A DNA stretch of 64,000 nt from Escherichia coli (GTDB taxonomy: Bacteria; Pseudomonadota; Gammaproteobacteria; Enterobacterales; Enterobacteriaceae), in the NCBI RefSeq assembly GCF_017348835.2, contig NZ_CP071375.1; one strand, 5' to 3'. The notes under the pieces are model-generated. The model had not been told where the DNA came from, ran no database searches, and saw nothing but the letters and a program-made list of their open reading frames with translations. The position numbers were made by a program, and so were the translations under genes. Positions within the stretch are counted from its first letter, which is position 1. The number at the start of each line of letters is the position of its first letter. This document shows, in pieces, positions 51,722 through 64,000 of the stretch.

Positions 51722-53965
51722 TCAGGCACTTTCGCGAATGGGTTCGATTTCATTCAGCGTATCAATTAACGGTTGCGGCTTACCAATAAGATAACCCTGC
51801 ATATAATCGATCCCCAAAGAGAGCACTGCCTCGCGGATCTCTTCGTTTTCAACGTACTCTGCCACTACCAGCATTTTCTTCATTCGCGCCAGGTGGCAAA
51901 TCGATGCCACTATCTGATAATCCAGACTATTTGACACAATATTGCGGATAAAACTGCCGTCAATTTTAAGCAGATCGGCATTCACATTTTTAAGCCGCGC
52001 ATAGCTGGCGTAGCCGGTGCCGAAATCATCAATCGCAATCTGGCAGCCTAATTCCTGAAGATGCTGCAAGGTGATTTGCGCCTGCTTAACATTGGTCAGA
52101 GCATTACTTTCGGTGACTTCAAAAATAAGTTGCCACGCTTCAATCTGATATTTAGCCAGCAACTGACTGACTTCAACAGGAAAACGAGCCTGACATACCG
52201 AGGTTGGAGACAGATTAATAGCAAAACGGTGAGCGGGCATCTTCGCTCTGTTTTCAGCCATAAATTGCAGCGTATGCTCAATGACCCACATGTCGATACT
52301 CGACGATAAACCAAATTCGTGCGCGACCGGCAAGAAGCTATCGGGGCTGATCAGTTCATCATTCTCACCTTTCATGCGCAGAAGAATTTCATGGTAAACA
52401 TCACCACGCATACCGGTAATTGGCTGGGCCATCAGGAAAAAATGGTTGTGTTCCAGCGCCTGCTGTAGTCGATTCATCATCGCGACTTTATCTTTCAATT
52501 CGCGTTGCAAATACATTGCCCCGCGACGCTGCATATTTTCCGGGGCGTTGGTCACGATGGAAAGTTCGGCGACCGTATTTAGCTCTCCCAGCAGCAGGTA
52601 GATATAATTCACTGGCGAGCGCACATAGCAGTAACTGACGCCAATCTGCGGTTGCATCGGCATGCCATCCCAAAAGAAACGAAATTGCTTGAGATGGCTA
52701 TCCAGTGCGGTAATGCGCTCCTGGTGCGATTCTGTATTCAGTCGCAGCGCGAGATCGTTACCCGAAAGCTGATAAACATCTTCACCCGGTTCCAGCAATG
52801 GTGACAGCCAGTGAGAAAGTTTTTGCTTGTATTGAATCCGCAGCATGATGCCATAGTTTTTAACCAGCATTTCCATGCCAGGGATGCGTAAATAACAAAG
52901 CGCAGACCAGGGGGCATCACGCAACGCGCGATTCAGGGCGCGAACATTTGGCAGATGAACCACCGGGTCCACATACGCAAGCCGCTGAATGCGTCTGACT
53001 ACCGTTCTCTGACGGGTTGCCAGTACAGCCATATAATTGACAATAAAAGAGAATACCAGATAACTGGAGGAGGTTATGGTCAGCTGCGTGGTATAGCCGG
53101 GATAAATGGGAATGTAATTTTGATAGCTGTGGATGCTGATCATCAACACGACCGCCCAGAGCAGTGAAATCAGCTTATAACCATAGCGCATCGCTCCCCA
53201 CATCATCAGGGGCAGCAATAATGACAAGGTATAATTGGTGCTAAAAATTGTGCTTTTTTCATTTAACGGCATGCATAACAGCAACAGTAAAGCACCTAAT
53301 GCCAGTAGCCAGAGTGCGAACTCTTTTTTGGTGACTTTGACATCAACCTGCTGTTTTAATTGCGAATAATAACTACGTAAATAAAACGGATTTCGAACTA
53401 CCCGAATGATGAAGTAGCACAGCGGGACACCAATCAGATTGCCCACCAGTAAGGCCTGATAATTGATTAAAGTCCCGAGGTTAAAAGGCATGACACCGAC
53501 CAGATTTTCTCTGCTCGCCAGTAATCCTACAAATGCAGCAAACTGGAAAAGTATCAGAAACAGCGTTGCAGGAAACACAATCTGCCAGAATATACGCTGG
53601 GAAATTAAACGGGTATCACCATGTGAAACGTTGTTACGCCGGGGAGTAAAGACCCTGTAACCGCCCCAACAGAGAATGATAATGATGATAAAATTAGCCG
53701 TTAATGAGAGCGTTTCGTAAAAACCCAGCTCTGCATATTTGCGGACAAAAATCCCTAAGGCGATCCCTGGCAATGCCGCCCAGCTGAAAAACATCATCAT
53801 GCTGATCATCAGTGCCAAAGGCAGATAAAAGAGAAAAACCTCACCGGAAGAAATATGCGCGAAAGTATTAATGTGGGCGAAAATAGGCAAGATTAAAGAA
53901 GGCAGGAACAGCGGAAGCCCCCACCATTTATCACGTATTTTTATATAAGTTGCATTCAGTTTCAT
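51722..53965 (-). CDS. pdeF: Membrane-anchored cyclic-di-GMP phosphodiesterase (degenerate GGDEF plus EAL domain) YfgF/PdeF
   Basis: 747-aa ORF with an N-terminal multi-TM region and a C-terminal EAL domain (EVTES ... DDFGTGYAS). Confidence 0.9.
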   Translation of the reverse strand: MKLNATYIKIRDKWWGLPLFLPSLILPIFAHINTFAHISSGEVFLFYLPLALMISMMMFFSWAALPGIALGIFVRKYAELGFYETLSLTANFIIIIILCWGGYRVFTPRRNNVSHGDTRLISQRIFWQIVFPATLFLILFQFAAFVGLLASRENLVGVMPFNLGTLINYQALLVGNLIGVPLCYFIIRVVRNPFYLRSYYSQLKQQVDVKVTKKEFALWLLALGALLLLLCMPLNEKSTIFSTNYTLSLLLPLMMWGAMRYGYKLISLLWAVVLMISIHSYQNYIPIYPGYTTQLTITSSSYLVFSFIVNYMAVLATRQRTVVRRIQRLAYVDPVVHLPNVRALNRALRDAPWSALCYLRIPGMEMLVKNYGIMLRIQYKQKLSHWLSPLLEPGEDVYQLSGNDLALRLNTESHQERITALDSHLKQFRFFWDGMPMQPQIGVSYCYVRSPVNYIYLLLGELNTVAELSIVTNAPENMQRRGAMYLQRELKDKVAMMNRLQQALEHNHFFLMAQPITGMRGDVYHEILLRMKGENDELISPDSFLPVAHEFGLSSSIDMWVIEHTLQFMAENRAKMPAHRFAINLSPTSVCQARFPVEVSQLLAKYQIEAWQLIFEVTESNALTNVKQAQITLQHLQELGCQIAIDDFGTGYASYARLKNVNADLLKIDGSFIRNIVSNSLDYQIVASICHLARMKKMLVVAEYVENEEIREAVLSLGIDYMQGYLIGKPQPLIDTLNEIEPIRESA

Positions 53966-54508: not shown

Positions 54509-54601
54509 CGGTTACCTTCTCCACTTTCACAGAACATAACGGCACTTTGAACCGCCCCGGAAATCCTGGAGACTAAACTCCCTGAGAAAGAGGTAAACAG
54601 G

Positions 54602-54928
54602 ATGACTAAAAATACTCGTTTTTCCCCCGAAGTCCGTCAGCGGGCGATTCGTATGGTTCTGGAAAGTCAGGATGAATATGACTCACAGTGGGCGGCAATT
54701 TGTTCCATTGCCCCAAAGATTGGCTGTACGCCGGAGACTCTGCGTGTCTGGGTTCGCCAGCATGAGCGGGATACCGGGAGTGGTGATGGTGGACTCACCA
54801 CCGCTGAACGTCAGCGTCTGAAAGAGCTGGAACGTGAAAATCGTGAACTGCGCCGCAGTAACGATATCCTTCGCCAGGCTTCCGCTTATTTTGCGAAGGC
54901 GGAGTTCGACCGCCTCTGGAAAAAATAA
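54602..54928 (+). CDS. IS3-family transposase OrfA (HTH DNA-binding part)
   Basis: 108-aa [33 protein letters not shown]... with a leucine-zipper-like C-terminus; A-rich slippery run (ggaaaaaataatg) at its 3' end. Confidence 0.85.
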
Positions 54929-55815
54929 TGCCACTGCTGGATAAGCTGCGTGAGCAGTACGGGGTCGGACCGGTATGCAGCGAACTGCATATTGCCCCGT
55001 CAACGTATTACCATTGTCAGCAACAGCGACATCATCCGGATAAACGCAGTGCCCGTGCGCAGCACGATGACTGGCTGAAGAAAGAGATACAGCGCGTATA
55101 CGATGAAAATCACCAGGTATACGGTGTGCGTAAAGTCTGGCGTCAGTTGTTACGGGAAGGTATCAGAGTGGCCAGATGCACTGTGGCACGTCTCATGGCA
55201 GTTATGGGACTTGCCGGTGTTCTCCGGGGTAAAAAGGTCCGCACTACCGTCAGCCGGAAAGCCGTTGCCGCATGCGACCGCGTAAACCGTCAGTTCGTGG
55301 CAGAACGTCCAGACCAGTTGTGGGTGGCTGATTTTACCTGGGTAAGCACATGGCAGGGCTTCGTTTATGTGGCGTTCATCATTGATGTGTTCGCCGGATA
55401 CATCGTGGGATGGCAGGTCTCATCATCCATGGAAACAACATTCGTGCTGGATGCACTGGAGCAGGCGTTGTGGGCCCGTCGGCCGTCCGGCACAATCCAT
55501 CACAGTGATAAAGGTTCTCAGTATGTATCGCTGGCCTACACGCAGCGGCTTAAGGAAGCCGGATTACTGGCATCAACAGGGAGTACTGGCGACTCGTATG
55601 ACAACGCGATGGCTGAGAGCATCAATGGTCTTTACAAAGCGGAGGTAATACACCGTAAGAGCTGGAAAAACCGGACAGAAGTGGAACTGGCCACACTAAC
55701 GTGGGTGGACTGGTATAACAATCGACGATTGCTGGAAAGGCTGGGCCATATTCCTCCGGCAGAAGCAGAAAAAGCTTATTATGCTTCCATCGGAAATAAT
55801 GATCTGGCAGCCTGA
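54928..55815 (+). CDS. IS3-family transposase OrfB (DDE integrase catalytic domain)
   Basis: 295-aa ORF in the -1 frame relative to OrfA; rve/DDE core recognisable (WVADFTWVST ... DKGSQYVS ... DNAMAES). Confidence 0.85.
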   Translation: MPLLDKLREQYGVGPVCSELHIAPSTYYHCQQQRHHPDKRSARAQHDDWLKKEIQRVYDENHQVYGVRKVWRQLLREGIRVARCTVARLMAVMGLAGVLRGKKVRTTVSRKAVAACDRVNRQFVAERPDQLWVADFTWVSTWQGFVYVAFIIDVFAGYIVGWQVSSSMETTFVLDALEQALWARRPSGTIHHSDKGSQYVSLAYTQRLKEAGLLASTGSTGDSYDNAMAESINGLYKAEVIHRKSWKNRTEVELATLTWVDWYNNRRLLERLGHIPPAEAEKAYYASIGNNDLAA

Positions 55816-56045
55816 GTTCACAGATAAAACACTCTCCAGGAAACCCGGGGCGGTTCAAACTCGTACAGTGGCGTACCACTGGGGTCCATTCCTTCAAGTC
55901 TCAGGGAAGCCTCTGCTTTGCGGAAGCCCTCAATGCGTAACCGTGTATAGGGAGTCCTAGACATGTTTTTCCTTTGAGTTGCAGGAGTGAGGTTCGCTCA
56001 GTGAAAGCGTCAGCTCACGCAACCTCGTTAACTGACGCGCGTGAT

Positions 56046-57446
56046 TCAAGATTTATTATTACCCGATAAGCTATCACCGGCAAAATCATCATGTTCGCGG
56101 TTATCCCGACGAGTAGCTGTTTGTTTACTTATCTGAGTCGCCAACTCCTCTCCAATAGTTTGTTGGGCACGAGAAGAACTGCTACTTCGCTTCATTCTCT
56201 GGTACTCAGCAGCTCCGTTAGCCATGCTGCTTCCCATATGGCTTGCCATGCGGCCAGCACGCGAGAATGAAGCAAACCCCTGACTTCCTCCACTGGCGCT
56301 ACCTGAACTGCTCCCTGCAGACGAACCACTGTAACCGCCTGAGGTTTGGCCTCCAGAAGTATCTACAGAACCGGTATCTTCCCCGCCGCCAAATCCTCCA
56401 CCGGAACCGCCTCCGCTGCCTGAACCAGATTCTTCGTCCATGGCAGCTTGCGCAGACTCGAATGCTGCCTTTAATGCTGAAGCTCCGCCGCTGACTTGAG
56501 CTGATGCCCCCATTGCCATTGCTCCAGCACCGCTGATGGCAGTAGCGGCTGCGCCGGTAATCATACCCGCCCCAAATCCACCAATCCCTTGTAAAGAAGC
56601 CCCTCCTACAACACCTGATAACAACAGTGGTAGCTTATTAGTTAATACTAACAGGATAATTGACGCCAGAAGCAAAACTATAAGACTATTAAGATCAGGA
56701 ACATCATCTTTAATAAGAGAAAAATATTGATCTATAAATGATTGTCCAATCCCAATAATTAATGTCATCGTGAATAATTGAATGCCAATCGATAAAACAG
56801 TTCGTAAGTAATTAATTGCTATATCAGAGGTCCATTTCGAACCACCAAACCCAAGCAATATAACTCCTGCATAACATAACACCCATGCAGAAACCAACAT
56901 GATTAGCATATTTATCGCTATAAGGGACATCACTACCAAAACGATTATCGCGACTGTTATCATAATGGTGGATATCATTGGCGACCAAATTGATGCGGCT
57001 GAACTGATCTTGGTTAATATCGCAAACGCCATATCAACTATGCTTGAGGGAGAAATACCAATACTTATTTCTAAAGCGTTTGCTGCAAGTTGTCTCATTG
57101 AATTAATTATGGATTGCGATATGGATGGACCGTTGATTAAAAGATAATAAAAAAAACCAATGACGGCAAAAAAGCGAACTATTTCAGCAAGTACCCCTGT
57201 CAACCCTTCCCCTTGCATCGCCATCATACCAAATGTCCAAACCATACTTATTAATACCAGCCCCCAGAAGAGCCAATTTGCATAGTCAGCAATTACTGCT
57301 GTCCATGTACTGGCTACTTGTTGAAACTTATCTAATAAAGTATCAAGTAGCCCGCTACTATCTAATTGACCAGCATAGGCATTAATAGAAAAGAAAAGTA
57401 TGATACCTAAAAAGGTGAGCTTACTTACTATTTTCATGATTACCAT
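56046..57446 (-). CDS. trbL: TrbL/VirB6-family conjugative transfer membrane protein
   Basis: 466-aa ORF with signal peptide, several TM helices and a long Gly/Ser-rich hydrophilic C-terminal tail, the TrbL/VirB6 architecture; synteny with trbJ and a small lipoprotein gene upstream. Confidence 0.65.
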   Translation of the reverse strand: MVIMKIVSKLTFLGIILFFSINAYAGQLDSSGLLDTLLDKFQQVASTWTAVIADYANWLFWGLVLISMVWTFGMMAMQGEGLTGVLAEIVRFFAVIGFFYYLLINGPSISQSIINSMRQLAANALEISIGISPSSIVDMAFAILTKISSAASIWSPMISTIMITVAIIVLVVMSLIAINMLIMLVSAWVLCYAGVILLGFGGSKWTSDIAINYLRTVLSIGIQLFTMTLIIGIGQSFIDQYFSLIKDDVPDLNSLIVLLLASIILLVLTNKLPLLLSGVVGGASLQGIGGFGAGMITGAAATAISGAGAMAMGASAQVSGGASALKAAFESAQAAMDEESGSGSGGGSGGGFGGGEDTGSVDTSGGQTSGGYSGSSAGSSSGSASGGSQGFASFSRAGRMASHMGSSMANGAAEYQRMKRSSSSSRAQQTIGEELATQISKQTATRRDNREHDDFAGDSLSGNNKS

Positions 57447-57631
57447 TCTCGTTTAGGGCTTGGTTTATTATTACTCCGTAGAGCACATTTATCGTATTTA
57501 TGTTCATCAAATTTATTATCTGGCATCGATAAACAATCTTTATCATTTTTATCGCAAGAACATATGGCCAATAAACTGATCAGAATAAATACAATCAAAA
57601 AATTATCTTTCATTCTGCGTTTCCTCACCAA
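57440..57631 (-). CDS. Small lipoprotein in the TrbK (IncP entry-exclusion) position
   Basis: 63-aa ORF with a hydrophobic leader and Cys-containing lipobox-like motif (LLAICSCDK); overlaps the trbJ stop and trbL start, as trbJ-trbK-trbL does in IncP plasmids. Confidence 0.45.
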   Translation of the reverse strand: MVRKRRMKDNFLIVFILISLLAICSCDKNDKDCLSMPDNKFDEHKYDKCALRSNNKPSPKREW

Positions 57632-58419
57632 ATTCGCTTCGGGCTTGGTGTATTCTCTCCAGCTAACGCTTTTTCATCAGCGGCTATCTGTTGTGATTCT
57701 TTATCTGCCTGAGCCTGTGCCAGTGTTGCTGCAGCGTTTTGTTGGGCTACCAGAAGTGAGCGGATTTGCAGTAACTGATTTGTCTGTGCACTGGCAAGCT
57801 GGTTTGCCGCCTGAATAGCTTCCATTTGCCCTTGTGCGCCGCTTGCCTGAGTTTGTAATTCGGCAAGATTATCAGCATCGCTCTGCAGGGTGTTCTGCTG
57901 CTCGTCAATTACCTTAAATACTGCGTCATTGGCCTTTTTACGCGCCCCTGAGCTATTCTGTTCAGCTTCACGCAGTGCACTAATTTCAGACGCGGTACAT
58001 TCAACATTGCTGTTAAAGCAAGACGATGTCCTGTAGTAGTTAACATCCTGATAGCGTTTCAGGTACGCATCGAGACTCCCGGCCTGATTCTTGTAGTAAT
58101 TAAGGGTATCCTGCACCTGCAACAATTTATTAATTGTTGAATTTGCCTGGTCCCAGATATAGGCCGCAGGAGCTACGGTGTTCTGCAGCATGTTTTCATA
58201 CTGCTGCAGCTGCGTCTGGTACTGCTGGATTTGTTTAGTCACAGCCTGAACGTTGTTAACTGCGCTGATTGTGGTCTGAACCACATTAGTGCCATCAATA
58301 ACGGGAATTCCGGCCTTCACCGGTAATGCCATGACGGACGCCACGAAAGGAACTATTAAAGCTTTTTTAGCGGCTAAAATCCCTCTTTGTGATGAAACCA
58401 CTCGGAACTTTAAATTCAT
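57625..58419 (-). CDS. trbJ: TrbJ/VirB5-family conjugative transfer protein
   Basis: 264-aa ORF with signal peptide and Gln/Ala-rich coiled-coil stretches typical of TrbJ/VirB5 minor pilus/adhesin proteins. Confidence 0.6.
   Translation of the reverse strand: MNLKFRVVSSQRGILAAKKALIVPFVASVMALPVKAGIPVIDGTNVVQTTISAVNNVQAVTKQIQQYQTQLQQYENMLQNTVAPAAYIWDQANSTINKLLQVQDTLNYYKNQAGSLDAYLKRYQDVNYYRTSSCFNSNVECTASEISALREAEQNSSGARKKANDAVFKVIDEQQNTLQSDADNLAELQTQASGAQGQMEAIQAANQLASAQTNQLLQIRSLLVAQQNAAATLAQAQADKESQQIAADEKALAGENTPSPKRIW
58365..58379. promoter_or_regulatory. KorB-operator-like palindrome TTTTAGCGGCTAAAA (copy 1, inside the 5' end of trbJ)
   Basis: Perfect inverted repeat containing TTTAGCGGCTAAA, identical to the IncP-1 KorB operator consensus TTTAGC(G/C)GCTAAA. 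Confidence 0.6.
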
Positions 58420-58499
58420 TTGCTCACCTCTTTTTCAACAGATTAGTAATATTTAACACTCTGTCTGTTAACAGACGCAGGTATATAGGAAACCACACA

Positions 58500-58865
58500 T
58501 TATTTATCCAAGATTTTATCCATAATGTTCCTTAGTTCTTGCCGAGTTGATTCTATTTTCGCAAGCAAGGTTCTTATCAGTGTGGGTGAAAAATCAACTG
58601 TTCGAGGATCATTTGCGAGCCATAATTTAAGTAATCCGCCAAGTCTTCCAAGATCAGCATTTACTCGGCTAAGTTCATTAACCTGTTTTATATCTACGAT
58701 AGAATCAACCTGATAACCCATTGCAACTCTACGAACAAAACAGGCAACACTTAATCCAGATGCTTCTGCATTTTCTTGGATGAGAATTTTTTCTTCGGGT
58801 AAACAATAAACTTTTATTGGCGTACTATTTTTTCTAGTCTGAGTAACTTTCATATAGCTCTCCAT
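58500..58865 (-). CDS. MobC-family relaxosome accessory protein (ribbon-helix-helix)
   Basis: 121-aa ORF; VYCLPEEKILIQENAEASGLSVACFVRRVAMG ... LSRVNADLGRLGGLLKLW fits the MobC-family pattern; lies directly beside a candidate oriT region. Confidence 0.55.
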   Translation of the reverse strand: MESYMKVTQTRKNSTPIKVYCLPEEKILIQENAEASGLSVACFVRRVAMGYQVDSIVDIKQVNELSRVNADLGRLGGLLKLWLANDPRTVDFSPTLIRTLLAKIESTRQELRNIMDKILDK

Positions 58866-58939
58866 ACAGGCGGTAGCCTGGCAGCCTCGCAGAGCAGGAC
58901 GCCCTTGAGCCGCGATGCGGCGAATAGGGAGTGGTAAAG

Positions 58940-58995
58940 TTGGAACACCGTAGCGGTGGGCCCACTTTACATGTCCTGCCCTGCAGTTGCCGTTG
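58940..58995. promoter_or_regulatory. Candidate origin of transfer (oriT-like region)
   Basis: 10-bp perfect palindrome GTGGGCCCAC (58956-58965) immediately followed by CTTTACATGTCCTGCCCTGCAG, which resembles my recollection of the IncP nic region (core TCCTGCCC); adjacent to the MobC-like gene. Confidence 0.35.
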
Positions 58996-59252
58996 TATAT
59001 CTGTGCACGACAATGTGTATTTCAGTGTACAGGATGTGTTTTCTTAGCGTATTAATATAGGATTACTGGAGTAAATTTCTGCAGCAAATGTGTTTTTTGC
59101 AAGGAAACTATATTTCTCCCTTTTGAAAATGACCTTTAGTAGTTATAAATGGACGTCCACCAACTGTATTTATGTTTCGATATATTGTAAGAAGTCTTTC
59201 ATTTTCCGATGCACTTTTTTACTTACCTTGTCAGAGCATGTGCATTGCAGAT

Positions 59253-59265
59253 TTTAGCGGCTAAA
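59253..59265. promoter_or_regulatory. KorB-operator-like palindrome (copy 2)
   Basis: aTTTTAGCGGCTAAAATc; exact match to the IncP-1 KorB operator core, in the 675-bp intergenic region. Confidence 0.6.
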
Positions 59266-59501
59266 ATCTGCCTCCCTATGCCTAAAGCTAGGGGCGTACC
59301 TCATATGTCATAAAATCTACCTCAAGTGTCAATATACCAAACGTGTAAGTAATCTCTTCTTCTGGCGTACAACCATCGGTCTTTGGCCGATTCTAGATTT
59401 GAAAGCGCCTGCTCAGGCAGGTGATTTCAAAGCCTGAATATACTGGTTGATCCTGAATAACCTGCAAAGGAGTTAAAAAATCAGGCCTCTGTAGCACACT
59501 G

Positions 59502-59562
59502 GCGGGCCGTTACAGCACATCACCGGGCCGTAACGACACGTTACCGGGCCGTTGTAGCTCGT
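59502..59562. repeat. Three direct iteron-like repeats with 21-bp periodicity
   Basis: CGGGCCGT recurs at 59503, 59524 and 59545 with similar flanks (..TACAGCACAT / ..AACGACACGT / ..TGTAGCTCG); the third overlaps the stop codon of the putative initiator gene. Confidence 0.5.
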
Positions 59563-60314
59563 TTTATCCTAGAATTTTGTATCTCAATGCCAATCGCTAG
59601 AAATTGTTTGCTATCTTCTTTTAATCTCCGCCGATAGTTACGTAATGTCATATTATTGGTACCTTCACCACTGACAGCTAAAATTAATGTATCAATATGC
59701 CAGCCGCCTTTAGGATCGTGCTTATGTGTTAATATATGACGTGCAACTGCTTGGCTAATACCATGCTGGAGACGAGCAATAGGACCTGGATCATGATGAA
59801 AATGCAAATCTCGCTTCAACAACATTACCAATGCAACACCCAAGCGTACTCTCCATAGGTTACGTTCACCACCAGTTAGAGGATTACGCCTAGTCATTGG
59901 TGAGGGTACGACATGGTCAATTAAACCGCCTAGAATGCAATAACCGTTTTTTTCTAAATCTGGCGTTACTATTTCAACAGTTGCCACACGTAGATCAACG
60001 AGTAGTTTTTTAATTCGATCATAACTGTATTGTGCATCGGATAGAGTTCGGCGTACTTTCGCTGGATCTACTAATAACTCGATTCCTCCATCAGAAATTT
60101 CTCGACGTTTCTCGGCCACATAGAGCATTGTTTCCACAATATCCGCATGACGTTGTCCTAGTCTTCCGGTAACTCGACAACGACCAAAACTAGTCTCCAT
60201 CCACTGCCCCTTCAGCGCCAAGGGACGTTGACTTGGTTGGTACAGAATGACTCTAGCCTGCAGAGCTGTGCTAGTAGGTGTAACTTTATTACCAGTTATC
60301 ATTTTCTGCACCAC
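59541..60314 (-). CDS. Hypothetical protein, possible replication initiator (RepC-like by position)
   Basis: 257-aa basic protein directly downstream of the RepA-like helicase gene and ending in the iteron-like repeats; assignment rests on gene order, not on recognised motifs. Confidence 0.35.
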   Translation of the reverse strand: MVQKMITGNKVTPTSTALQARVILYQPSQRPLALKGQWMETSFGRCRVTGRLGQRHADIVETMLYVAEKRREISDGGIELLVDPAKVRRTLSDAQYSYDRIKKLLVDLRVATVEIVTPDLEKNGYCILGGLIDHVVPSPMTRRNPLTGGERNLWRVRLGVALVMLLKRDLHFHHDPGPIARLQHGISQAVARHILTHKHDPKGGWHIDTLILAVSGEGTNNMTLRNYRRRLKEDSKQFLAIGIEIQNSRIKRATTAR

Positions 60315-60330
60315 TCAATGAAGACATACA

Positions 60331-61146
60331 TTATTTTGCTATTTGTTTTTTATTCTTCGATTTGAGTTGCGTTATCCTTAATACTCCTCCCTCATGTCTC
60401 TGTAACCAACGTTCTGGCGTACGTTCTCCATAATTTGCTTTATTTATTCCAAATCTAACAAATTGACCTCGAACATCATCAGAAATATCATACGTCTTCG
60501 CTTCTAAGGCGGTCATGCCCGCCAGATAAGATTGCCACCGTATATTATCAACCAGGACGCTACTACCCCTGCTTGCCTGCTGTATATCACCAACTCCCAT
60601 CGTGGCAGAGCCTTTGTTTGAATGGTGTAGAAATATAATCGAACACCCTGTATCAGCAGCAATACCTTCTAGCTTTCCAATGACTTTGGACATTGCTCCG
60701 CTATTATTTTCATCTTCCTGGTGGAAACGGCGAAGAGTATCCAAAATTATTAACCGTCTACTTTTTGAAATCTCATTAATCAAGTTGCTCCAACCTGGCG
60801 AGAAAATATTTGGACACTTCCCTACCAAAGGTTCGACAAGTAGCTTATCAGCAACAATCTGCTGCTGACGTGCTGTTAGATATTTTCCCAAAGCATATAG
60901 ACGATGGTGAATGATGGTTGCAGAGTCCTCCACAGGTAAATATGCCACTAACCCCGTTGGATATTCACCAAAGTTTAAAAGATCTACACCACAAGTAATC
61001 TGCACAGCCAGTTGCAATGCCAGCATTGACTTTCCAACGCCTCCCGGAGAAACAATCGCTCCGATAGTACCAATAGCCAAATTAGGCAAGACGTAATCAA
61101 TTGGTTGCGGCTTAGCTTCAAATGCTTCCATTATGTTCAATGACAT
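60331..61146 (-). CDS. RecA-fold AAA_25 ATPase, RSF1010 RepA-like replicative helicase
   Basis: 271-aa ORF with Walker A (SPGGVGKSMLALQLA) and Walker B-like (RLIILDTL) motifs; size and motif layout as in IncQ RepA. Confidence 0.6.
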   Translation of the reverse strand: MSLNIMEAFEAKPQPIDYVLPNLAIGTIGAIVSPGGVGKSMLALQLAVQITCGVDLLNFGEYPTGLVAYLPVEDSATIIHHRLYALGKYLTARQQQIVADKLLVEPLVGKCPNIFSPGWSNLINEISKSRRLIILDTLRRFHQEDENNSGAMSKVIGKLEGIAADTGCSIIFLHHSNKGSATMGVGDIQQASRGSSVLVDNIRWQSYLAGMTALEAKTYDISDDVRGQFVRFGINKANYGERTPERWLQRHEGGVLRITQLKSKNKKQIAK

Positions 61147-61151
61147 TGCTG

Positions 61152-61403
61152 TTACCTACCTAAAACAATACCGGGTCTGGCTGCTTTAAACATTGCTGAT
61201 TTACGATCCGCAATCCACTGTTCCACTTCGGATAACTGCCATGCAACATTTCGGCTCGTAAGTGCTATACGGCGAGGAAACTCGCCTCGCTGTTCAAGGT
61301 TATAAATAGTGCGGGCTGACAATGGGATCATTTCCAGAAGTGTTTTTCTGTTAATGAGCGTGCTATGTGCCTTTGTTTGCATCTGCCTTCCTCCTGTTTC
61401 CAA
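61152..61403 (-). CDS. alpA: AlpA-family prophage/island transcriptional regulator (excisionase-like)
   Basis: 83-aa ORF with the AlpA HTH signature (LSARTIYNLEQRGEFPRRIALTSRNVAWQLSEVEQWI). Confidence 0.7.
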   Translation of the reverse strand: METGGRQMQTKAHSTLINRKTLLEMIPLSARTIYNLEQRGEFPRRIALTSRNVAWQLSEVEQWIADRKSAMFKAARPGIVLGR

Positions 61404-61459
61404 TCAGGCCTATACAATGCCAAGCATTACCACTTGCTAAAACCTATTCATTGGCTAAA

Positions 61460-62431
61460 ATGGTTGACATGAAAATTACTATCTGGGAAGGCTGTGACCT
61501 CACAGTTGCAGCTGCAATTAAATTATTTGTAGAGCGTAGTTCTCCGTACTCCATATTTTCACGGAGGTATCCAATACTGCGTCTCATACAGGAAGTTATT
61601 GATCCAGCAGTAGCTGATTATGTAAATTCCCTGCCACCAAGTCATAAAGACTACATTTCTGGAGTAAATCTAGGATTTAGTGAAGTACTTAAAAAATTGG
61701 GTTTAAACGTCGTAGTACAGGCACAAAGACTTCTTTTGCGTAATTTCGTTCTGACTTTAGATCAACAAACTTCTCTTGATAAATGCTTTACCGCTACGAT
61801 TGAGTCTCTTATTGAATTAGTCAGTGAATGCGCATCCAAGCGGCCGAAGAAATCCTCTCCTGCAAAAGGAGTAACTATAAATTCACAGCGTAAGCTCGGT
61901 TATTGCGAGTTCTGCGGTAATCTAACCGAATTTTCCAAGTTGATCAGTGAGATATCAGAATTTGTTGCTAACGATAATGAGTTCCCCGTTCATGAAAAAC
62001 AGGTCCTTAGTCATCGATATTGTTCTGACCATAGGCCCAAACTCACCAATGGTCTATGGAATCCCAAATACAGACAAGGAAAGCGGTCTCTCGAACAGTT
62101 CAATAAAGAATTAATAAGGCTTAGACGGCAATGCGCTAAACCTCATAAAGCTAACGCAAACACAGGGGATATATTGATTGATACATATTTTCATGAGTGG
62201 ATGCAGGGTCAAACTTTAACCCCAGCAGATCTAGATAAACTTAGGAATATCGCCAGACGAATGGTTGACTCCAAATTCACTGATACTAAGAAAAAAATAA
62301 TCATATTAAAACACCAAGGTTTTAACCAGTTTGAAACCGCACAGGTTTTAGAAAAAAATCACTACACAACTATGACAAAGCAGGCTGTGTCCAAGGCCTT
62401 AGCGTCTGTGAGGAAAGAATTTTATATTTAA
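61460..62431 (+). CDS. Hypothetical protein with Cys/His cluster and C-terminal helix-turn-helix
   Basis: ORF track starts at 61367, overlapping alpA; a more plausible start is the ATG at 61460 (MVDMKITIW). Contains CEFCGN ... HRYCSDH and a C-terminal HTH-like segment; no family recognised. Confidence 0.45.
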   Translation: MVDMKITIWEGCDLTVAAAIKLFVERSSPYSIFSRRYPILRLIQEVIDPAVADYVNSLPPSHKDYISGVNLGFSEVLKKLGLNVVVQAQRLLLRNFVLTLDQQTSLDKCFTATIESLIELVSECASKRPKKSSPAKGVTINSQRKLGYCEFCGNLTEFSKLISEISEFVANDNEFPVHEKQVLSHRYCSDHRPKLTNGLWNPKYRQGKRSLEQFNKELIRLRRQCAKPHKANANTGDILIDTYFHEWMQGQTLTPADLDKLRNIARRMVDSKFTDTKKKIIILKHQGFNQFETAQVLEKNHYTTMTKQAVSKALASVRKEFYI

Positions 62432-62856
62432 AATAGTATATCCACGAGCTATTATGGTGGCAGTTTAAGTCTTAATACCATCCACTTTATTGAATTATAA
62501 CCAGCCACTTACGAAGGTTTTTCGCGATTACCCTGCTTCAAATTGATGATTTTGAAAATACAGTATTATAGTTTATTGTTTGTAGCGCAGCTGTAAGCGT
62601 TATGCAAAATGGATCACAGTGATACGACCTCACCAGTAAATCACTGAAGCCGATCTGTAATGACATAGAACGAATTGGTTTTATGGTTATGCAATGGCTC
62701 ATCCCCTTACTTGTCCCTGACCATAAAAAGCATTCGCTTTCCTGAAAGCAAGTCTAAGCCAAGGGGCGTTTACAGTTGTCTTATCTTGACTCATTAGGTA
62801 CTGGCTTAATGATTAGAATCATGTCGGTGGCATTTAGGTCCAAATATGCCCAAAAT

Positions 62857-62869
62857 TTTAGCAGCTAAA
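62857..62869. promoter_or_regulatory. KorB-operator-like palindrome (copy 3, central A variant)
   Basis: aTTTTAGCAGCTAAAATt; same arms with a central A instead of G/C. Confidence 0.5.
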
Positions 62870-62900
62870 ATTCGTCTTCTCATGTAGGGTCAAGAAGCTT

Positions 62901-63098
62901 ATGACTAAACCTATTGATTATGTGAATTACCTTGTGAGTAATACTCGTAGGATGGAATCTTCCAAAACTCTGACAATTCACTCTGAATGCATGGTAACAA
63001 AGAACAGTTTAAACCATGGTCTGTTCAGCGTTAAATTTCTCAAGATAGACTTCCATTTCGCGAGTCCACCTAGGGGTAGGTACCGAGGTGATCATTAG
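62901..63098 (+). CDS. Small hypothetical ORF (65 aa), doubtful
   Basis: Begins about 30 bp after KorB-like copy 3 but overlaps the 3' end of the convergent 209-aa ORF; weak ribosome-binding site. Confidence 0.2.
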   Translation: MTKPIDYVNYLVSNTRRMESSKTLTIHSECMVTKNSLNHGLFSVKFLKIDFHFASPPRGRYRGDH

Positions 63099-63638
63099 CC
63101 AAGGAAACCACCATACAAGCATGAAGAGTAACATAAGCGGTGCGATCATTTCGGCCGAAGAATGAGAAACTATATACATAATGAATAATATTAGTAGAAC
63201 TGTGTTTACAATCTGACCTACCAGAAAAAGACGCCAGCGAAAACAATGCCATTTCCTGTTGAACACAATCCGTCCATCCCGTTCTTCGAGCCAGTTACGC
63301 CACGGCTTGAGATAACCAGCCCGCAACCCATAACGATCACACATTATTACAGCCAAATCCTGCAGCCGATAATTATACAAGCCTGTGAGCCGATAAAGGC
63401 TGCGCTGACGAAGCTCACGCTTTGCCAGACGGACCGCATTTTTATTCAAATATGGCTGTGTCAGCATTTGCTCTAGCCGGCGCTTCCTAAGATTGAGTAG
63501 TCCACGAAATACACTTCCAGATTCAGCATTAATTACTCTGTGACGAACTACACCGAGTGCAATATAGATACACAGCAATAGCCAGCCGGTCTTAGGGTAT
63601 TGATTCATCCATTGTATAATTACAGACAACTCAGGCAC
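63009..63638 (-). CDS. Hypothetical membrane protein (209 aa)
   Basis: Two to three predicted TM helices separated by an Arg-rich loop; KorB-like copy 4 lies about 55 bp upstream of its start; no family recognised. Confidence 0.5.
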   Translation of the reverse strand: MPELSVIIQWMNQYPKTGWLLLCIYIALGVVRHRVINAESGSVFRGLLNLRKRRLEQMLTQPYLNKNAVRLAKRELRQRSLYRLTGLYNYRLQDLAVIMCDRYGLRAGYLKPWRNWLEERDGRIVFNRKWHCFRWRLFLVGQIVNTVLLILFIMYIVSHSSAEMIAPLMLLFMLVWWFPWLMITSVPTPRWTREMEVYLEKFNAEQTMV

Positions 63639-63692
63639 TTTTATTTTTCCTTTTTATGCAATCCAGATAAAACCAGTAAAGATTCAGTAAAT

Positions 63693-63705
63693 TTTAGCGG
63701 CTAAA
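63693..63705. promoter_or_regulatory. KorB-operator-like palindrome (copy 4)
   Basis: aTTTTAGCGGCTAAAATt, between the 209-aa membrane protein gene and the integrase gene. Confidence 0.6.
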
Positions 63706-63761
63706 ATTGCTCTCCTGGCGTAGAAAAAAGAAGCACACCAACTTAACTTACTGATTATTAA

Positions 63762-64000
63762 CTACTTACTAGTCCATTCATCAATCATATTCGCCCAATC
63801 TTGTAGCATCTCAGCCCTCTGCTCACGATATTCTGCCTTGTTATAAACAGCTCGTACCCCTTTTTGTTCATGGGCAAGGCTCTTCTCAATCCAGTCAGTA
63901 TTGTACCCGGCCTCATGTAGCAAGGTGCTGGCTGTACGCCGTAAGTCATGGGGACCAAACTTAGGCAACAACTCCCCTTCTTTCTGAGCCAGGCGATACG
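63762..64000 (-). CDS. int: Tyrosine recombinase (P4-type integrase), C-terminal part; the gene continues past the window end
   Basis: Frame open to the window edge; C-terminal sequence ...GPHDLRRTASTLLHEAGYNTDWIEKSLAHEQKGVRAVYNKAEYREQRAEML contains the catalytic H-x-x-R and Tyr region of phage-type integrases. Confidence 0.75.
   Translation of the reverse strand, partial: YRLAQKEGELLPKFGPHDLRRTASTLLHEAGYNTDWIEKSLAHEQKGVRAVYNKAEYREQRAEMLQDWANMIDEWTSK

Follow-up and report, generated by a model that had tools for sequence, protein, structure and literature searches.

The stretch analyzed here is a 64,000-nucleotide window of the Escherichia coli chromosome (RefSeq contig NZ_CP071375.1, assembly GCF_017348835.2), which is 100% identical to strain PE164 and carries three adjacent genes for IncP-type mating-pore proteins, trbJ, trbK and trbL, with no type IV secretion system (T4SS) around them. 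We conclude that the three genes almost certainly make up the conserved transfer module carried by an integrative mobilizable element inserted at guaA, of the PIME1 type and related to GIsul2, and we propose that the trio may give a hijacked mating pore its own exclusion identity. Taken as a whole, identity and function together, this is the best explanation that we can offer, and we put its probability at about 0.6. The island type and the idea of pore reshaping are both already published, and the object itself is a truncated copy of a known family. What is new here is the purifying selection on the module, its uneven divergence from plasmid systems, the plasmid lineage to which it points, and the loss of cargo and of the distal attachment (att) site to an IS3-family element.

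A preliminary description of this DNA, made from the sequence letters, had read three minus-strand open reading frames (ORFs) as TrbJ, TrbK and TrbL. The ORFs are where it placed them, and the identities are borne out by NCBIfam and Pfam models for TrbJ and TrbL and by alignment for TrbK. The trbJ gene (57625-58419, minus strand) encodes a VirB5-family protein of 264 residues with a signal peptide and the C-terminus NTPSPKRIW, which matches the PRK13879 equivalog model from end to end (379 bits, cutoff 286) as well as TIGR02780 (180 bits against 100.6). The trbL gene (56046-57437, minus strand) encodes a VirB6-family protein of 463 residues from the ATG at 57437, or 466 from the ATG at 57446, recognized by TIGR02783 TrbL_P (270 bits, cutoff 128.9) and by Pfam PF04610 (E=1.4e-29). 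Its C-terminal part is Gly/Ser-rich, in keeping with the Gly-rich tail described earlier, and the last ~40-55 residues of plasmid TrbL are missing. A check by hidden Markov models (HMMs), as the preliminary description had proposed, thus held for TrbL with PF04610 and TIGR02783 and for TrbJ with PRK13879, but TrbJ was marginal in Pfam and TrbK stayed under its cutoff. Specifically, Pfam gave a single T4SS match for TrbJ (E=0.006) and nothing for the small ORF, so the NCBIfam models were needed. Sequence searches of the PDB with TrbJ and TrbL returned no relatives. As a separate observation, the phage protein library PHROGs holds families that are nearly these exact proteins (phrog_21088 for TrbL, 828 bits; phrog_20348 for TrbJ, 496 bits; and phrog_19586 for the neighboring TraJ, 209 bits; window 56046-58865), and such islands may have been taken for prophages in its source data.

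The trbK-like gene between them (57440-57613, minus strand) encodes a predicted inner-membrane lipoprotein of 57 residues with a lipobox (...ICSC/D, the slash following the Cys) and the C-terminus KPSPKREW. Its longest ORF begins at the TTG at 57631, but its homologues and RefSeq begin at the ATG at 57613, with GAGGA 8 nt upstream. This matters for the gene layout, which had been described as three genes coupled by stop/start overlaps at 57625-57631 and 57440-57446; those overlaps arise when the longest ORFs are taken, and on the homologue and RefSeq starts they give way to gaps of 11 nt (trbJ-trbK) and 2 nt (trbK-trbL), although the tight packing of the genes stands. No HMM matched the small ORF (57440-57631) significantly. 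The best NCBIfam match, TIGR04359 TrbK_RP4, covers the full length of the protein at 13.3 bits, below the cutoff of 23 (E=0.061), and a word-indexed homologue search with TrbK found 13 close clusters and zero distant ones. Four features are nevertheless common to this protein and the plasmid TrbKs, namely a signal peptide leading to the lipobox Cys, an Asp at +2 (Asp or Glu across the aligned TrbKs), a second conserved Cys, and the C-terminus, in which KPSPKREW is identical in R751 TrbK. On the strength of these features we treat the product as a divergent TrbK homologue lying below the formal family threshold.

The module stands directly downstream of traJ and oriT, in the same orientation, an arrangement that the preliminary description had missed along with the guaA site and the IS3-family truncation. 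The traJ gene (58500-58853, minus strand; longest ORF to 58865) encodes an oriT-binding relaxosome accessory protein (PRK13877, 160 bits), and alignments place an IncP-type oriT core at 58934-58981 on the plus strand. This core contains the nick region GTCCTG/CCC (58973-58981, plus strand) and an imperfect 17-bp inverted repeat with arms at 58954-58970 and 58934-58950, and a conserved traJ promoter and leader run from it down to 58866. The nick region, the inverted repeat and the traJ leader all align with those of R751, pHNFP671 and pAUSMDU00010527, and the nick-proximal repeat arm with the GTCCTG nick core is closer to pAUSMDU00010527 (nick region GTCCTG/C) than to R751 (ATCCTG/C). In a second clade of islands, 84% identical to this one, the oriT core is identical to that of pAUSMDU00010527. 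The outer ~45-58 bases of the oriT region (window 58956-59013) are also matched at 86-91% identity by mostly very small plasmids (2.7-3.8 kb, one of 14.5 kb), in matches that extend into the nick region and no further than the nick-proximal arm of the repeat.

The window has no gene for VirB4, TrbB, a coupling protein or a relaxase, as had been described, and outside ~54.5-64 kb the window is filled by core genome, from eut through pdeF and yfgG. Nor is any T4SS gene found beyond it. The preliminary description had named a complete T4SS just outside the window as the finding that would make these ordinary components, but the identical PE164 genome has there the remainder of the integrase gene int, then guaA and guaB, so that possibility falls away. 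In the intact relatives NY1601 and HS, only cargo separates trbL from yfgI, with no T4SS genes.

The setting is that of an island integrated at the 3' end of guaA. In PE164 the order runs from the IS3-family element through trbL, trbJ and traJ to repA, a helix-turn-helix gene, a LuxR-labelled gene and int, followed by guaA. The full int gene adjoins guaA, and the proximal att core, AAATCATTCCCACTC, overlaps the guaA stop codon about 1.25 kb past the window end. Between oriT and the window end lie a conserved hypothetical protein of 257 residues with no family match (59541-60314, minus strand), located between repA and oriT; repA itself (60331-61146, minus strand), for an RSF1010-type RepA helicase (AAA_25, E=1.2e-28; "helicase RepA family" in RefSeq); alpA (61152-61382, minus strand), for an excisionase or regulator (PF05930, E=7.2e-13, with PHROG excisionase families); a divergently transcribed regulator (61460-62431, plus strand) that RefSeq labels LuxR family and that has zero Pfam or NCBIfam matches; a hypothetical island membrane protein of 209 residues (63009-63638, minus strand; ORF and RefSeq); and the 3' end of the tyrosine integrase gene (63762-64000, minus strand), which runs off the window and is complete in PE164. 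The island core genes are co-oriented with int, and the LuxR-labelled gene is divergent.

The other end of the island has been lost. Compared with the intact islands of HS and NY1601, chromosomal homology ends at 54547, right after yfgG, and island homology restarts at 55859, 187 bp beyond the trbL stop codon. The interval is occupied by an IS3-family insertion sequence of ~1310 bp (54548-55857, plus strand) with terminal inverted repeats of 27 nt and a two-frame transposase (54602-55815), which replaces the cargo, the distal att site (attR), yfgH and yfgI. It cuts a HigA-like gene, which comes next after trbL in intact islands and of which the first ~35 codons remain (55858-55964, minus strand). 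In NY1601 the cargo after trbL comprises that HigA-like gene, a 5.3-kb gene with a reverse-transcriptase domain and a ComEC-like gene, and in HS a 4.1-kb gene together with one encoding a PIN domain. Another att core, AAATCATTCCCACTC, follows the cargo in intact islands and adjoins yfgI; the core is thus found twice in intact NY1601 but once, next to guaA, in the PE164 locus. Since the distal att site is missing, this copy can probably no longer excise by site-specific recombination and is likely to be immobile, and the transfer experiments proposed in the preliminary description would for the same reason fail on it.

A truncated copy raises the question whether the module is no more than a decaying remnant without function, left by an ancestral conjugative element or an integrated plasmid and carried passively. 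Besides the truncation and the lost att site, this view is favored by decay elsewhere, since in JL05 trbL is frameshifted and traJ has a stop, and in FCI56 traJ has a stop; decay thus occurs in some island lineages. The selection data speak otherwise. Against the 84%-identity clade, the ratio of nonsynonymous to synonymous divergence (dN/dS) is 0.13 for traJ, 0.10 for trbJ, 0.19 for trbK and 0.14 for trbL, at dS values of 0.56-0.75, so the three trb genes show 0.10-0.19 over a dS of ~0.6. They are under purifying selection and are kept as proteins without a T4SS. In addition, the ORFs are intact in most sampled island copies, the lipobox and C-terminal motif persist in trbK, and trbJ and trbL make up, with int, alpA and repA, the five markers by which a January 2026 preprint (bioRxiv 10.64898/2026.01.12.698999) picked 1136 elements in RefSeq, falling into four subfamilies. 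We therefore consider a passive leftover very unlikely.

Among 5426 complete E. coli genomes, it occurs at ~240 chromosomal places, and at least 80% of this island core is present in 30 genomes. The VirB4 gene belonging to the nearest plasmid lineage occurs in 63 of these genomes, on plasmids only and never in the chromosome. The second chromosomal clade, at 84-85% identity, comprises E. coli T28R and roughly 120 other E. coli chromosomal records with the same traJ-trbJ-trbK-trbL module; in T28R, the one genome in which the location was checked, the copy (locus L008, 16001-18824) sits in a composite island by tRNA-Thr and proA and not at guaA. E. coli HS differs in another way. Its traJ-trbL module is ~95% identical to that of the window, but against window 59076-63773 it has a different RepA, no LuxR-labelled gene and two IS1 copies. 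Because HS pairs a similar traJ-trbL set with a different replication and regulation module, the transfer module is seen to be shuffled between island backbones. Orphan trbJ-trbK-trbL sets without trbI or trbE as neighbors are also seen on plasmids, in a Xanthomonas hortorum plasmid, where the set adjoins mobC and a ptaRNA1 toxin gene, and in the IncI1 plasmid pHUSEC411like of E. coli PMV-1, where it adjoins IncQ-type repA/repC and a ptaRNA1 toxin gene; both sets probably represent such islands that have inserted into plasmids.

The nearest complete systems are those of the enterobacterial IncP-like plasmids pGDZJ002-1, pB16EC0557-1 and pAUSMDU00010527, and homology to these and to R751 upholds the IncP affinity that had been proposed. 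The divergence from them is uneven. TrbJ is 82-86% identical to the versions of the enterobacterial IncP-like plasmids and 56% to that of R751; the corresponding values are 52-61% and 45% for TrbL and 28-39% and 36% for TrbK, and TraJ is 69% identical to that of pAUSMDU00010527 (the only enterobacterial value) and 44% to that of R751. TrbL is itself uneven, with 85-90% identity to the plasmid versions in its Gly-rich linker and only 38-70% in its membrane core. Such a pattern would be expected of proteins that have an exclusion identity of their own on a scaffold that stays compatible, without proving that they do. We also considered trbK as a hot spot of divergence among island copies, as dS between the window and HS is 0.50 for trbK against 0.05-0.11 for its neighbors, but ten copies did not bear this out. 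Across them the variation is mosaic, the central part of trbJ is the most variable, and the divergent trbK allele occurs in HS only; diversifying selection on trbK was dropped for this reason.

Because TraJ, oriT and TrbJ all point to it, the enterobacterial IncP-like lineage of the pAUSMDU00010527 and pHNFP671 types is the likely source of the module. The same lineage is possibly the natural helper, and would be a better candidate than pB10 or pKJK5. A candidate helper was sought in the same strain, and neither PE164 nor F2_81 is among the 60 listed of the 63 genomes with the related plasmid VirB4. The small plasmids that match the outer oriT bases may be mobilizable via the same helper lineage.

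The island belongs to a family that has been described. The preprint defines the PIME family and its subfamily PIME1, and this island resembles PIME1-EcRHB23-C07 and PIME1-MmNCTC12028 in its guaA attB, tyrosine integrase, alpA with a divergent luxR-labelled gene, and repA, as well as in traJ, an IncP-like oriT with a 17-bp inverted repeat, trbJ-trbK-trbL and the absence of a T4SS. The E. coli representative of PIME1 is also relaxase-free; the likeness is one of gene set and order, and the difference is that the IS3-family element has truncated the copy in the window, at the cost of its cargo and distal att site. In the preprint, the IncP plasmids pB10 and pKJK5 induce PIME excision, as shown without trbJ, trbK or trbL mutants, and an E. 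coli PIME element was induced but poorly mobilized by both plasmids. Insertion at the guaA 3' end and an IncP-related orphan trbJ-trbK-trbL set are likewise found in GIsul2 and in the IncP islands described from Brucella suis and Burkholderia glumae. By their description (PMC5704250), GIsul2 carries RepA/RepC, ars genes and sul2, and the IncP islands encode their own relaxase, unlike this island; according to the preprint, both differ from the PIMEs in gene content and order, with a low similarity limited to mobility genes. The IncP-type plasmids RP4/RP1, R751, pGDZJ002-1, pHNFP671 and pAUSMDU00010527 share the trbJ-trbK-trbL order and families and a homologous oriT and TraJ, but hold the trio inside a full trbB-trbN operon with VirB4.

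The orphan trio in GIsul2 and the IncP islands was noted by Guedon et al. 2017 (PMC5704250), who proposed by analogy with SGI1 that it reshapes the IncP mating pore and defeats entry exclusion; the preliminary description had arrived at the same hypothesis. Like the island studied here, SGI1 is a relaxase-free mobilizable island with a few mating-pore subunits homologous to those of its helper, and its TraN, TraG and TraH replace subunits of the IncC helper and override exclusion (summarized in PMC5704250). It differs in having F-type and not P-type subunits, another helper group and another integration site. On this analogy we now put forward a hypothetical mechanism. In the presence of a helper, trbJ, trbK and trbL would be transcribed with traJ from the oriT promoter. 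TrbJ (VirB5, in the stalk and pilus tip) and TrbL (VirB6, in the inner-membrane platform) would replace or mix with the helper subunits, and TrbK, located in the inner membrane, would be the protein responsible for entry exclusion. The borrowed pore would thereby gain the exclusion identity of the island, allowing the island to enter cells that hold the helper, and cells that hold the island would exclude its entry. In this scheme TrbJ may carry the donor-side specificity, as is suggested by the correspondence between the C-terminal tails of the two proteins TrbJ and TrbK discussed below. SGI1-like pore remodelling fits the purifying selection, the matched TrbJ/TrbK pair and the greater divergence of TrbK and TrbL than of TrbJ, and we give this functional model close to an even chance, if slightly less.

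Several points weigh against it. The TrbK-like protein scores below its family cutoff, the mosaic variation among island copies does not mark trbK out as a site of diversification, and trbL or traJ is pseudogenised in some copies (JL05 and FCI56). In the preprint, the co-transfer of the helper was not lowered by PIMEs, unlike with SGI1. Moreover, we found no published experiment on the trbJ, trbK or trbL gene of any such island. The literature names no partner of IncP TrbK on the donor side, so the exclusion logic rests on analogy.

Two other functions must be considered. The module could mainly be a barrier of the host or island, in which TrbK, expressed from the chromosome, keeps IncP-type plasmids from entering, with TrbJ and TrbL in accessory roles. 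That the island TrbK ends in the same eight residues as R751 TrbK, and that the TrbK C-terminus is reported to be essential for exclusion, would suit such a role, as would the defence-like look of the cargo in intact relatives and the description of PIME islands in the preprint as reservoirs of immune systems. But a barrier leaves the conserved TrbJ and TrbL unexplained, movement of the island itself requires an incoming helper, and pB10 and pKJK5 were put into island strains and used as donors with no barrier reported (10.64898/2026.01.12.698999). All told, this role seems to us unlikely.

Alternatively, TrbJ and TrbL could adapt the helper channel in substrate choice or efficiency to favor the relaxosome-DNA complex of the island, with exclusion playing no part. 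VirB6-family proteins contact the DNA substrate in the Agrobacterium VirB/D4 system, and this general property, the co-orientation of the module directly downstream of traJ and oriT, and an island TrbL that lacks the C-terminal tail of plasmid TrbL are all in line with such an adaptation. It gives the conserved trbK no role and leaves the matched TrbJ/TrbK tails unaccounted for, and we regard it as no more probable than the barrier.

The matched tails are what lead us to extend the exclusion model. Across all the IncP-like trbJ-trbK-trbL sets examined, TrbK ends in 8-12 residues that resemble the tail of the cognate TrbJ, and this common tail differs from system to system. In the island (encoded at window 57440-57475 for trbK and 57625-57660 for trbJ), TrbJ ends in NTPSPKRIW and TrbK in NKPSPKREW. 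The respective TrbJ and TrbK tails are KTKPTPIGTYQN and ETKPTPIGTYQN in Tardibacter pHSL3, TPNPKNWLQVKP and TEHPKNWLEVKP in the Xanthomonas hortorum plasmid, and TWTFRPSPADNY and QWEFKPSPKDDY in the insert in pHUSEC411like. Over eight independent systems, the score of the cognate pairing is reached by only 2 of 40320 permutations. The Tardibacter tails are identical at 34 of 36 nt, which is compatible with recent gene conversion, but such conversion is not a sufficient explanation because identical tail residues often differ in their codons, as do 6 of 7 in the IncI1 insert and, in the Xanthomonas plasmid, 5 of 9. In the IncN plasmid R46, the tails of TraC and EexN have a weak SPxI motif in common and nothing more, so the pattern has so far been seen in IncP-like systems only. 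The literature searched, whose coverage does not extend to Haase et al. 1996, holds no prior mention of the likeness between TrbJ and TrbK.

Given that the tails match, that the TrbK C-terminus is reported to be essential for exclusion and that a donor partner of TrbK is unreported, the data suggest a role for TrbK as a decoy that imitates the TrbJ tail. In a further and quite tentative step, which is in our view doubtful but better placed than the barrier or the channel adaptation, the trio would be the specificity unit of IncP-type exclusion. TrbK would be a membrane-anchored copy of the TrbJ tail, and exclusion would be decided by whether the TrbK tail of the recipient matches the TrbJ tail of the donor or the binding site of that tail, possibly on TrbL. 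The pore used by the island would in this way be switched to a private exclusion group.

Two observations on the host chromosome stand apart from the island. In the annotation of the identical genome, RefSeq gives pdeF an internal stop, yet window 51722-53965 is an uninterrupted pdeF ORF of 747 residues, and it gives hyfR as frameshifted (about window 36928-38939).

As an object, this copy is ordinary, belonging to an island type that is already catalogued in hundreds of genomes. What it raises is the question of why islands that are free of a relaxase or of a T4SS keep exactly trbJ, trbK and trbL, and the helper lineage indicated by TraJ, oriT and TrbJ, together with the tracking of tails between TrbJ and TrbK, makes that question more testable. 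Indeed, the tracking of the TrbK tail suggests a concrete and swappable determinant of exclusion specificity and, if the decoy mechanism is true, the donor-side partner of IncP TrbK would be named.

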